In this document: positions 2,237 through 51,890 of the stretch, in pieces
Layout: every line of letters begins with the position of its first letter
How positions within the stretch are numbered: the first letter of the stretch is position 1
Assembly: GCA_043808095.1 (NCBI GenBank)
Contig: JAZDFF010000001.1
Coordinates: 94,230-158,229 of the forward strand
Origin: Candidatus Omnitrophota bacterium
GTDB lineage: Bacteria; Omnitrophota; Gorgyraeia; JAZDFF01
Direction of reading: 5' to 3'
DNA length: 64,000 nt
The notes under the pieces: model-generated
Database searches by the model: none
Seen by the model: only the letters and a program-made list of their open reading frames with translations
What the model was told of the DNA's origin: nothing
Translations under genes and position numbers: made by a program

Positions 2237-3340
2237 ATGAAGATAATCATAGCCACAACCGGTTCTGGTGGTCATCTTAGCCCGGCAATTGCCTTGGCTG
2301 AGGAGTTAAAAAGAAGGTCACCAGACCTGGATTTATATTTTATTGCAAGCGGCCAGCCCTTAACGGAAGGACAACTCAAAGGTAAAGCTTTTAAGATAAT
2401 AGTTTTCCCTGCCTTAAGCCCTAAGAAGAGTTTTGCTTTACAAAACATCATCTTAATAATAAAATTAATAGATATAGCCTTAAGGTCTTTATTTATAATA
2501 ATTAAGATTAGGCCGGATTTATCAATTGGATTTGGCGGTTATATTTCGGGCCCAGTAATTTTGTTTTCACATCTTTTGTCAGTCAGGACCGTTATTCATG
2601 AGCAGAACCTTAAACTTGGCCGAGCCAACAGGATATTGAGTAAATTTGTCGATAATGTCGCTTTAAGTTTTGAAGATTCAGTAGAATTTTTACGCCACCA
2701 AGATAAGGCTTTTGTTTGCGGAAATCCTTTAAGAAAAGATCTCATTAGTTCTTTGACTAGACAAGAGGCCTGTCTAGATATCGGCCTTACGCCAAACAGA
2801 TTTACCGTCTTGGTCACTGGCGGGAGTTTAGGCGCCAGGCACATAAATAAAGAGTTTATTAATCTGTTAAGAGACTGGAAAGACCCTGATTCGATACAGG
2901 TAATACATATCTCGGGAGAATTGGACTTTCAAGACGTGGTATCCGACTATGATACAATAAAGATACCGCATAAGGTATTCAGTCATTTTAGCAAGATGCA
3001 ATATGCTTATAGATGTTCAGACCTTGCTGTTTGTCGCGCTGGAGCAACGACCATAGCAGAACTGGCTTTTTTTGGTTTACCTGCAATATTAATCCCGTAT
3101 CCCTATGCCAGGGGAAACCATCAATTAGAAAATGCAGTTTTGTTAAAAAATTATTCTGCGGCGATCTTGATTGAGGATGATAAACTTGAGGCCGGGGTTT
3201 TAGAGAAACATATCTTAGGCCTGATTAGAGAGCCTAAGGAATTAACCCGGATGTCTCAAAATATCAAAAAATTTGCCAGGCCCGAGGCCGCCAAGGAACT
3301 GGCAGATTTGGTATTTTCTTATTCCCCTTCGCTCCGATGA
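2237..3340 (+). CDS. murG: Undecaprenyldiphospho-muramoylpentapeptide beta-N-acetylglucosaminyltransferase MurG
   Basis: N-terminal MKIIIATTGSGGHLSPAIALAEEL (GT28 G-loop); start placed at internal ATG 2237 rather than ORF-track start 2165. Confidence 0.85.
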   Translation: MKIIIATTGSGGHLSPAIALAEELKRRSPDLDLYFIASGQPLTEGQLKGKAFKIIVFPALSPKKSFALQNIILIIKLIDIALRSLFIIIKIRPDLSIGFGGYISGPVILFSHLLSVRTVIHEQNLKLGRANRILSKFVDNVALSFEDSVEFLRHQDKAFVCGNPLRKDLISSLTRQEACLDIGLTPNRFTVLVTGGSLGARHINKEFINLLRDWKDPDSIQVIHISGELDFQDVVSDYDTIKIPHKVFSHFSKMQYAYRCSDLAVCRAGATTIAELAFFGLPAILIPYPYARGNHQLENAVLLKNYSAAILIEDDKLEAGVLEKHILGLIREPKELTRMSQNIKKFARPEAAKELADLVFSYSPSLR

Positions 3341-50434: not shown

Positions 50435-50507
50435 GCCGACGTAGCTCAGTTGGCAGAGCAGCGGTTTTGTAAACCGCGGGTCGGAGGTTCGATTCCTCTC
50501 GTCGGCT
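50435..50507 (+). tRNA. tRNA-Thr(TGT)
   Basis: GCCGACG/CGTCGGC acceptor, anticodon stem GCGGT/ACCGC with loop TTTGTAA, T-loop TTCGATT. Confidence 0.85.
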
Positions 50508-50622
50508 CTTTTCCAAAATTGACTACGTCAATTTTGGAGTAGCGAGTAGAGAATATTTTATTCACTGACTACTATGTACTATTTACTGATTACTAAAGGG
50601 ATGATTTCTTATAGTTTAAAAC

Positions 50623-50982
50623 GGGCAGGTACCCAAGCGGTCAAAGGGGACAGACTGTTTAAAAGCAGCGCCCCGACGAAAGTCGTGGTGGAAAAGTAGG
50701 TGAATTCAGGGAAACCCTCTCGTAACTACGAAAGGTAATCCTGAGCCAATCCTCGCACAAAGCTGGCAGGCAGAAGGCCTGCTTGCTGAAGCTTTAGCGA
50801 AGGCAGGTGCAGAGACTAAGCGCCTACCACCTAAAACTGGATGAAGCCCAGTTTTATCCCAAGCGAAGTTAAGGGATAACTTCTCTGGTTAAGGTGATGA
50901 GATAGTCCAAGCCTTGAGGAAACTCAAGGGATACTTGAAATCTGTTGCACACGCTTCAGAGGTTCGAATCCTCTCCTGCCCA
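50623..50982 (+). tRNA. tRNA-Tyr(GTA) interrupted by a group I intron in the anticodon loop
   Basis: Exons GGGCAGGTACCCAAGCGGTCAAAGGGGACAGACTGT + AAATCTGTTGCACACGCTTCAGAGGTTCGAATCCTCTCCTGCCCA form a class-II Tyr cloverleaf (acceptor GGGCAGG/CCTGCCC, anticodon stem ACAGA/TCTGT, loop CTGT|AAA). Confidence 0.75.
50659..50937 (+). ncRNA. Group I intron (IC3-like, no ORF) within tRNA-Tyr
   Basis: 5' splice site after U with GCAG guide-sequence partner; terminal G; core elements AATCCTGAGCCAA, GGTGCAGAGACTAAGCG and GAGATAGTCC resemble cyanobacterial tRNA-Leu intron P3/P7 elements as recalled from memory. Confidence 0.7.
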
Positions 50983-51084: not shown

Positions 51085-51357
51085 GTGCTCAGCTTCGAAG
51101 AAATAGGGCTTAACTTAAAAATGGATAAATCAGAATCAGAATTTATTACGGTTTGTTCCACAAATAGCCTGGCAGATTTAGCCTTTATCAAATCATTGTT
51201 AGATAGTGAAGGTATTAAGTATTTTATAAAAAACGAAAACCTGAGGATTCTTTACGGCGCTGCCGATGGTTTTACGCTGATGGATATTCAGGTACTCGCG
51301 GATAAAATAGAAGACGCTAGAGAACTGCTGAAAGATTTTATCGGGCCTAAGAAGTAA
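51085..51357 (+). CDS. Small DUF2007-like protein (GTG start)
   Basis: 90 aa; RBS GAAGGAG upstream. Confidence 0.45.
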   Translation: MLSFEEIGLNLKMDKSESEFITVCSTNSLADLAFIKSLLDSEGIKYFIKNENLRILYGAADGFTLMDIQVLADKIEDARELLKDFIGPKK

Positions 51358-51358
51358 C

Positions 51359-51397
51359 GCGGGCATAGCACAGTGGTAGTGCAGTGGCCTTCTCCCG
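51359..51397 (+). other. tRNA-like 5' half (acceptor and D-arm only)
   Basis: GCGGGCATAGCACAGTGGTAGTGCAGTGGCCTTCTCC resembles the 5' half of a Gly-type tRNA but no T-arm or 3' acceptor follows; a family C palindrome follows. Confidence 0.35.
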
Positions 51398-51475
51398 AAT
51401 GAAGAAACTTCTTTAGAATAGCATCGGGATCCCGAAGTATAACTTCTTGGGTTACTACATTCGGGGCAAGCTATA
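51398..51475. repeat. Palindromic repeat, family C (CGGGATCCCGAAG / CATTCGGG)
   Basis: Reverse-complement match to 11895-11940. Confidence 0.7.
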
Positions 51476-51486
51476 ATAATAATTTT

Positions 51487-51557
51487 GCGGGAGTAGTTCA
51501 GTGGTAGAACAATAGCCTTCCAAGCTATATACGCGGGTTCAATTCCCGTCTCCCGCT
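51487..51557 (+). tRNA. tRNA-Gly(TCC)
   Basis: GCGGGAG/CTCCCGC acceptor, anticodon loop CTTCCAA, T-loop TTCAATT; CCA follows. Confidence 0.85.
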
Positions 51558-51559
51558 CC

Positions 51560-51890
51560 AATAGTTTACACGGGTTTCCGCCACCCGTCATCTTTGATGG
51601 CGAGTGGCGAGATCTCGCCGAAGCTAAAAAAATGGAGTCCACGGCTTTACCCTCTTCGACTCGCGTCGAGCGAGGCGAGCAGCCGTGGTACCTGAAAAAC
51701 CCGCCTACGCTTCGCTTCGGCGAGGTCCGCTCGCCTCGCGGCGAAGCCGCGGGCCTTCAATACGTAATGGCGACATCTCGCCGTAGCGCTAATTGCACGC
51801 ATTCATCCCCAGGTTCACACCTGGGGTTTTCCCGCCAAAGGCGAGGCTCGCCAAAGGCGGCTGCGCGAAGGCGGATAAATATCTAGCTTC
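51560..51890 (+). repeat. GC-rich island with four GGCGAG-N(2-5)-CTCGCC hairpin palindromes
   Basis: Palindromes at 51607-51620 (GGCGAGATCTCGCC), 51719-51735, 51779-51792, 51840-51852; composition clearly more GC-rich than the surroundings; ORFs here are Arg-rich low-complexity and judged spurious. Confidence 0.55.

Follow-up and report, generated by a model that had tools for sequence, protein, structure and literature searches.

The closest described relatives of the element reported here are group I introns inserted between positions 35 and 36 (35/36) of the anticodon loop of bacterial tRNA-Asn and tRNA-Asp. Williams (2020; bioRxiv 10.1101/2020.01.27.920355) expanded the known bacterial tRNA intron types from 4 to 21, and in 4,934 complete genomes Nakagawa et al. 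(2026; PMC13011429) counted 28 introns at 35/36, of which 25 were classed as IA. The tRNA-Asn and tRNA-Asp 35/36 introns of Patescibacteria self-splice in vitro (PMC13011429). Two tRNA-Tyr introns at this site are also on record, namely 'Mba143.Tyr.4Ug', which appears as CUGU/intron/AAA in the seed alignment of Williams (10.1101/2020.01.27.920355), and one in tRNA-Tyr(GUA) of Doudnabacteria GCA_016699995.1 (Nakagawa et al. 2026, Table S3; PMC13011429). Among the Omnitrophota entries listed in the portion of Table S5 available to us (PMC13011429), the only intron is an fMet 33/34 IC3 intron, and our literature search on Omnitrophota together with group I introns found nothing relevant. Here we analyze 64,000 nucleotides of a Candidatus Omnitrophota bacterium (contig JAZDFF010000001.1, positions 94,230 to 158,229), which we call the window. 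Positions 50623-50982 of the window very probably represent a tRNA-Tyr(GUA) gene split between U35 and A36 by a compact 279-nt group I ribozyme that lacks an open reading frame (ORF). We found no earlier description of this combination of intron clade and host phylum; host and site (Tyr 35/36) were already catalogued in 2020 and 2026. A first-pass annotation of this DNA had regarded a Tyr host with a 35/36 insertion as unusual; it is indeed rare, but the Williams and Doudnabacteria entries precede it.

The split tRNA-Tyr gene

All window coordinates refer to the plus strand. The 5' exon (50623-50658, GGGCAGG...GACTGT) comprises the 5' strand of the acceptor stem, the D arm, the 5' strand of the anticodon stem and the loop residues C32, U33, G34 and U35. 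The 3' exon (50938-50982, AAATCTGT...CCTGCCCA) supplies A36, A37 and A38, the 3' strand of the anticodon stem, a 13-nt variable arm, the T arm, the 3' strand of the acceptor stem and the discriminator A. Once the insert is removed, ARAGORN calls the joined exons (81 nt) as tRNA-Tyr(gta) and finds a long variable arm (class II). The acceptor, D, anticodon and T arms are all in place, as described by the first-pass annotation. The class II cloverleaf, the GUA anticodon and discriminator A73 are all those of a bacterial tRNA-Tyr(GUA). No CCA is encoded, TTC lying directly 3' of the discriminator. The variable arm (50946-50958) reads TTGCACACGCTTC, and that of relatives, TTGCACCTGTGCTTC, is 2 nt longer than these 13 nt.

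The 279 nt between the exons (50659-50937, starting with TTAAAAGCAGC and ending with ...ATACTTG) are identified as a group I intron by Rfam RF00028, nhmmer and covariation. The Rfam Intron_gpI model (RF00028) matches 50593-50929 with 86.6 bits (gathering score, 50; E = 1.1e-20) over model positions 1-253, i.e., its full length, which is far beyond chance and agrees with the earlier proposal of a ~279-nt group I insert in the anticodon loop CTGT|AAA. The intron is inserted between positions 35 and 36 of CUGU|AAA; the residue before it is U50658 and its last residue is G50937. This junction is unique, as exon 1 ends in T and the intron in G, and the intron starts with T and exon 2 with A. In addition, the joined exons of two related intron-bearing loci (L131 and L010) are each identical at 83/83 positions to the intact tRNA-Tyr of an intronless sister locus (L041 and L083, respectively), so that the splice site is set without recourse to an intron model. 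The intron mode of ARAGORN, applied to the unspliced region, returned a tRNA-Ser(tga) with i(34,279); it was ruled out, as the rule of U at -1 and a terminal G, the P9.0 pairing described below and the intronless orthologues set the junction at CUGU|AAA.

The mature tRNA-Tyr of the window matches the exons of the related split gene in L003 at 78/83 aligned positions and the intronless tRNA-Tyr of L027, L112 and L129 at 73-74/83. No second tRNA-Tyr was found within the 64-kb window by default ARAGORN or the Rfam tRNA model, which together called only tRNA-Met, tRNA-Thr(UGU) and tRNA-Gly(UCC).

Structure and conservation of the intron

To examine the fold, 15 introns with short exon flanks were aligned by MAFFT, and a P1-P9 structure was drawn up manually from the Rfam alignment, with the Tetrahymena and Azoarcus introns as analogues. 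Control pairings were obtained by sliding the 3' partners by 1-3 columns and by 500 shuffles. P6 was excluded from the covariation count because its variable hairpin is misaligned by MAFFT. The P1-P9 model, including the P3/P7 pseudoknot, has 93.8% of its cells paired versus 31-47% in the slid controls, and compensatory changes are seen in 24 of 54 pairs versus 5-11; none of the 500 shuffles attained the observed values. Thus, selection acts on the ribozyme fold. No variation is seen among the 15 introns in P4, P7 or the four P1 pairs formed by the exon (CUGU with GCAG, U-G wobble included), and all core positions that are invariant in the family are intact in the window copy. In the minimum-free-energy fold of the precursor, the anticodon stem spans the intron and P1 stacks on this stem; P2, P4, P5, P6 and P9 also form unaided.

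P1 (50655-50668) pairs exon residues C32-U35 and intron U+1 (50655-50659) with the internal guide AGCAG (50664-50668) around a UAAA loop. The U50658-G50665 wobble lies at the 5' splice site, and CUGU and GCAG are found in 15/15 introns; the first-pass annotation was therefore right that the U before the intron pairs with an internal GCAG guide and that the insert ends in G. The pair between position +1 and the guide covaries (GC in 6 introns, AU in 2, CG in 1, UA in 1, unpaired in 5). The P2 hairpin (50669-50690, CGCCCCGAC / GUCGUGGUG, GAAA loop, -11.7 kcal/mol) has compensatory changes in 7/9 pairs. The 5' strand of P3 (50696-50702, GUAGGUG) pairs with 50821-50827 (CGCCUAC), with 99% of cells paired and 3/7 pairs compensatory; this 3' strand follows P7 directly, without a P7.1/P7.2 insert. 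Within 50706-50744, P4 (50706-50711 with 50739-50744; 100% paired and invariant) encloses P5 (50716-50722 with 50729-50735), for which 5/7 pairs show compensatory changes across the family; the P5 pairs of the window copy score as mismatches in the alignment because of a 1-nt register shift. P6 with its extended hairpin (50745-50808) is longer than in most relatives and has a fold of its own at -28.8 kcal/mol.

The 5' strand of P7 (50812-50818, G-A(bulge)-GACUA) pairs with UAGUCC at 50903-50908, and all six pairs are invariant and 100% paired. By analogy, G50814-C50907 would be the guanosine-binding pair, which we take to be the counterpart of G264-C311 in Tetrahymena. P8 (50828-50896) is formed by CACCUAA (50828-50834) and UAAGGUG (50890-50896), has compensatory changes in 4/7 pairs and contains a large copy-specific internal extension (-21.1 kcal/mol). 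At the 3' end (50909-50937), the J7/9 segment AAG (50909-50911) pairs with CUU (50934-50936) to form P9.0, followed by the omega G (G50937), and the P9 hairpin (50912-50929, GAAA loop) lies between the two strands. P9 is compensatory in 4/7 pairs of the 15 introns, and P9.0 covaries in the wider family (AAG/CUU, ACG/CGU, AUA/UAU and AGC/GUU). The window intron also carries the motifs AATCCTGAGCCAA (50737-50749), GCAGAGACTAA (50809-50819) and GAGATAGTCC (50899-50908).

The intron encodes no homing endonuclease and has no ORF of meaningful size. With an nhmmer family profile, the window intron is recognized at E = 2e-57 as the sole copy in the window, and each locus likewise holds one copy; no further copies were found by this profile in the window or in 137 loci. 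A 16-nt direct repeat (88% identical, both copies on the plus strand) links the P8 extension (50876-50891, ATAACTTCTCTGGTTA) with the spacer upstream of tRNA-Gly (51439-51454, ATAACTTCTTGGGTTA), which is probably due to chance.

Proposed splicing pathway

The window intron is a real and probably active group I intron. Splicing would proceed by two guanosine-initiated transesterification steps that yield tRNA-Tyr, with CCA added later. The exons of the precursor would probably be held together by the anticodon stem (ACAGA/UCUGU), as in the Anabaena tRNA-Leu intron. P1 would arise by pairing of residues C32-U35 with GCAG, the internal guide, placing the U35-G wobble at the cleavage site, and a free guanosine bound in P7 would attack 3' of U50658. 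The terminal G50937, positioned by P9.0 (AAG/CUU), would then occupy the same guanosine site. Exon ligation should release an 81-nt tRNA-Tyr with the junction ...GACUGU|AAAUCUGU..., to which CCA, absent from the gene, would be added after splicing. The nearest precedent from experiments is provided by the Asn/Asp 35/36 introns of Patescibacteria, which have the GCAG guide and most core motifs in common with the window intron.

Related introns and position among known introns

Relatives were collected by two scans. Searching the GTDB species genomes with a pattern of the exon end and two core motifs gave 14 loci, all of which (14/14) are split tRNA genes cut at 35/36, comprising 10 tRNA-Tyr(GUA) and 4 tRNA-Asn(GUU) genes. 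The bins with a split tRNA-Tyr gene are labelled Omnitrophota (6), Planctomycetes (2), Gammaproteobacteria (1) and Saccharibacteria (1). A scan of metagenomes with the 5' exon alone as the query yielded 120 loci, 113 with an intact tRNA-Tyr and 6 with an intron (one duplicates L014 and one is ended by the contig end). Altogether, introns of this family interrupt 17 other complete genes (13 for tRNA-Tyr and 4 for tRNA-Asn, all at 35/36), mostly in Omnitrophota bins, and Intron_gpI scores 67-104 bits in 18/18 complete or near-complete intron loci. No phage carrier of the family was found in a pattern scan of viral contigs: the three matches all carry one and the same stretch, which has no tRNA by ARAGORN and no intron core downstream, and which seems to be a chance match.

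Identities were calculated over 182 core columns, and neighbor-joining (NJ) trees with bootstrap were built. The core of the window intron is 71-82% identical to Omnitrophota-type Tyr introns, about 63-65% to Asn 35/36 introns (including one that was spliced in vitro), 54-56% to the introns of Anabaena tRNA-Leu and Azoarcus tRNA-Ile, and 51-55% to the two published Tyr 35/36 introns. In the NJ trees, the Omnitrophota-type Tyr clade has 86% bootstrap support, the Leu/Arg/Ile2 IC3 introns are set apart with 97%, and the published Tyr introns group with Thr.2Ug, also with 97%. The resemblance to the cyanobacterial tRNA-Leu intron suggested by the first-pass annotation holds for individual motifs; the nearest kin are instead the GCAG-guide Asn/Asp 35/36 introns (~65% versus 54%).

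The window intron has the features of the GCAG-guide 35/36 family (Tyr.4Ug, Asn.4Ug and Asp.4Ug), i.e., insertion after U35 of CUGU, a GCAG guide and a terminal G. With the Asn/Asp 35/36 introns (PMC13011429; 'Asn.4Ug' and 'Asp.4Ug' in Williams 2020) it shares the CUGU|N site, the invariant GCAGC guide, the U-G wobble and the terminal G, the motifs GGUGAAUUCAGGG, AAUCCNGAGCCAA, AGAGACUA, AGCGCC and GAUGAGAUAGUCC, a short P9 with P9.0, and the absence of an ORF, which holds for most members. It differs from them in its host tRNA (Tyr) and host phylum (Omnitrophota), and the Asn/Asp introns are placed in IA/IA1 by the P7.1/P7.2 hairpins after AGAGACUA, which the window clade lacks. In the window intron, AGAGACUA is followed directly by the P3 3' strand AGCGCCUAC, and an insert of 30-40 nt is found there in L001, L002, L005, L007 and the Patescibacteria Asn intron; the Tyr intron of L002 carries a P7.1/P7.2 insert, as Asn introns do. 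'Mba143.Tyr.4Ug' and the Doudnabacteria Tyr intron resemble the window intron in host tRNA, insertion site, GCAG guide, compactness and lack of an ORF, but belong to another lineage with P3-P4 and P6 sequences of their own (GGGAUAACGGUGAA and CAAUACCGUGGGAA).

The IC3 introns of Anabaena PCC 7120 tRNA-Leu(UAA) and Azoarcus tRNA-Ile also resemble the window intron in having an anticodon-loop site, a similar size, P1-P9 and neither P7.1/P7.2 nor P5abc, and they share the motifs AAUCCUGAGCCAA and GGUGCAGAGACU with it. The Anabaena tRNA-Leu counterparts of the window motifs are GGCAATCCTGAGCCAAGCC, GGTGCAGAGACTCGACGG and GAGAGAGTCC (Table S4, PMC13011429). In contrast to the window intron, the cyanobacterial/plastid Leu intron lies at 34/35 and the Azoarcus Ile intron at 36/37, and both have another guide, an extended P9 with extra hairpins and a position in a separate clade. 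The architecture of the window intron (no P7.1/P7.2, no P5abc, P2 present) therefore looks IC3-like, whereas sequence affinity to the IC3 introns of Leu/Arg/Ile2/fMet is lacking (54-56% core identity versus 65% to IA-labelled 35/36 introns). As compared by core identity and NJ tree, the window clade appears to combine an IC3-like architecture with sequences closest to IA1-labelled introns.

Several further observations concern single members of the family. Bins labelled Saccharibacteria, Planctomycetes, Gammaproteobacteria or Burkholderiaceae carry its introns in L011 (CAYVXQ010000192.1, 1.5 kb), L009, L012, L002 and L007. Those of L009, L011 and L012 are Omnitrophota-type Tyr introns flanked by Thr and/or Gly tRNAs, with the shared gene order also present in L009 and L012; their taxonomic labels may reflect mis-binning. 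In L013 (5085-5357), from the Omnitrophota bin JACOVG010000009.1, a tRNA-Asn(GUU) 35/36 intron without P7.1/P7.2 adjoins the Omnitrophota Tyr clade with a weak bootstrap of 41%, which hints at a Tyr/Asn host switch within Omnitrophota. The Tyr intron of L004 (~2890-2955, minus strand) has ~50 extra nt between P9 and the terminal G, which contain two GC-rich hairpins, and its ...CACTTG end is duplicated.

Genomic context and distribution of the intron

The split gene lies in a conserved cluster of tRNA genes, with tRNA-Thr(UGU) (50435-50508) upstream and tRNA-Gly(UCC) (51487-51560) downstream, both on the plus strand. The gene order folP-cdaA-pdxJ-acpS-nnrD-tRNAs-...-ThyA-like is common to the window and to the related intron-bearing and intronless loci. 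Intronless loci have Thr(UGU)-Tyr(GUA)-Gly(UCC), and intron-bearing loci have Thr and Gly with a gap at the split Tyr, so that the split gene of the window occupies the orthologous slot of the intact tRNA-Tyr in its relatives. Proteins encoded in the window are 50-87% identical to those of related loci and 49-81% identical to their counterparts in labelled Omnitrophota bins; together with the synteny, this makes an Omnitrophota source probable.

NJ trees built from nnrD and from the ThyA-like protein intersperse intron-bearing loci among intronless ones, with sister pairs such as L131/L041, L098/L097 and L010/L083, in each of which the first locus has the intron and the second lacks it. The exon identity in the first and third of these pairs (see above) shows that the intron was precisely gained or lost within this lineage. 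The correlation between intron and host distances is weak (Spearman 0.35, with non-independent pairs), and repeated loss under vertical descent is not told apart from horizontal gain.

Additional features were noticed around the cluster. The distance from tRNA-Tyr to tRNA-Gly is 504 nt in the window versus 9-50 nt in L011, L012 and L014, and a 90-aa ORF with a DUF2007 domain (51085-51357, plus strand; Pfam E = 4e-12) lies between the two genes. Two nucleotides past its stop codon starts a 34-nt stretch (51359-51392, plus strand) that copies the 5' half of the intact tRNA-Gly(UCC) gene at 51487 with 76% identity. No matching 3' half was seen, and the 94-nt spacer contains a CCCGAATG/CATTCGGG inverted repeat; the partial copy may be the scar of an insertion or duplication at the 5' end of tRNA-Gly. 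Directly 3' of tRNA-Thr, a perfect 12-bp hairpin with a 3-nt loop and no T-run (50512-50538, plus strand; TCCAAAATTGAC / GTCAATTTTGGA) may serve as a signal for processing or termination between the Thr and Tyr genes. Across the window (1-64000), 41 of 41 ORFs of at least 230 aa are on the plus strand, a strong co-orientation. Among the other loci, flavin mononucleotide (FMN) riboswitches occur downstream of the tRNA cluster in two from Omnitrophota (L008, 1890-2051; L003, 1000-1114), and a bacterial RNase P class A RNA is present in L030 (5104-5544).

Alternative explanations

Some details of the window copy do not favor a functional split gene. Its variable arm, 2 nt short of that of relatives, has a stem of ~2 bp rather than 4 bp; P2 contains one C-U mismatch, and P5 has one C-A mismatch and a 1-nt register shift. 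Moreover, the P6 and P8 extensions are the largest in the clade, one nucleotide is inserted before P9.0, and the 3' exon shows no obvious classical P10 pairing. The mismatches in P2 and P5, the extra P6/P8 insertions and the shortened variable arm would be expected if the intron were a decaying, splicing-dead relic in a tRNA-Tyr pseudogene and a second, intact tRNA-Tyr elsewhere did the work. We consider this improbable, because every core position invariant in the family has been retained, the peripheral insertions fold into stable hairpins, the strong compensatory change across the family points to purifying selection on the fold, and the gene lies at the single conserved Thr-Tyr-Gly position, where relatives have their intact tRNA-Tyr. 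The short P1 (four exon base pairs plus one) and the lack of P10 could also mean that the intron, though a genuine group I intron, folds and splices efficiently in vivo only with the help of a chaperone (protein or RNA) or of the tRNA body. Zaug, McEvoy and Cech (1993) reportedly found the Anabaena tRNA-Leu intron to depend on exon pairing in the anticodon stem, which would fit such a requirement. However, Asn/Asp 35/36 introns with the same short P1 self-splice in vitro free of protein (PMC13011429), and the window intron encodes no protein; this possibility seems slightly more doubtful still than decay.

It is least likely, and in our view hardly credible, that a classical cyanobacterial-type IC3 tRNA-Leu intron has recently moved into this tRNA-Tyr. 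The motifs AATCCTGAGCCAA and GGTGCAGAGACT are common to both, and the absence of P7.1/P7.2 is an IC3-like trait. Nevertheless, core identity to the tRNA-Leu introns of Anabaena and Sel1 is 54% versus ~65% to the GCAG-guide Asn introns, and the Leu/Arg/Ile2 IC3 introns separate in 97% of bootstraps. P3 (GGUG-AAUUC), J7/3-P3' (AGCGCC), J8/7 (GAUGAGAUAGUCC) and the short single-hairpin P9 match the 35/36 family and not IC3. A tRNA-Tyr(GUA) gene interrupted by a group I ribozyme of the GCAG-guide family thus remains by far our preferred interpretation of 50623-50982.

Host range, spread and significance

The family to which the window intron belongs uses one GCAG guide at CUGU|N in the GUN-anticodon tRNAs Tyr, Asn and Asp. 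Within it, the window intron is part of a mainly Omnitrophota clade that lacks P7.1/P7.2 and is patchy at the same locus. Loops of the type C32-U33-G34-U35 are those of the GUN-anticodon, queuosine-family tRNAs Tyr, Asn and Asp. The GCAG family may spread without a homing endonuclease, by reverse splicing into tRNAs with such a loop. If so, this would explain why at least three independent intron lineages occupy one tRNA-Tyr site and why the intron is patchily distributed among orthologous Omnitrophota loci with identical exons. Splicing could also be coupled to tRNA-Tyr maturation or queuosine modification, as the intron splits the U33-G34-U35 element. Taken together, these considerations lead to a broader proposal that we put forward tentatively and think rather unlikely to hold in all its parts: an undescribed, Omnitrophota-centred GCAG clade, in which P7.1/P7.2 was lost or never present, would bridge the 'IA1' 35/36 introns and IC3-like introns, spread free of endonucleases and couple its splicing to tRNA maturation or queuosine.

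The finding also has consequences for genome annotation. Default ARAGORN and the Rfam tRNA model miss the split tRNA-Tyr in the window and in every related intron-bearing locus, and the intron mode of ARAGORN mislabels the window gene and two related ones as tRNA-Ser(tga). Since the split gene escapes standard tRNA finders, genomes of this lineage seem to be without tRNA-Tyr, an essential gene, and such an apparent loss distorts completeness and auxotrophy inferences for Omnitrophota bins.

From a comparative point of view, orthologous loci whose exons are 83/83 identical, with and without an endonuclease-less group I intron, constitute a natural experiment. One 4-nt guide serving Tyr, Asn and Asp hosts, and the three distinct intron lineages that occupy one Tyr site, add material for studying how group I introns that lack endonucleases are gained, lost and retargeted. 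These results overturn nothing known; their value is modest, and lies mainly in the practical matter of a missed annotation and in the comparisons that the family makes available.

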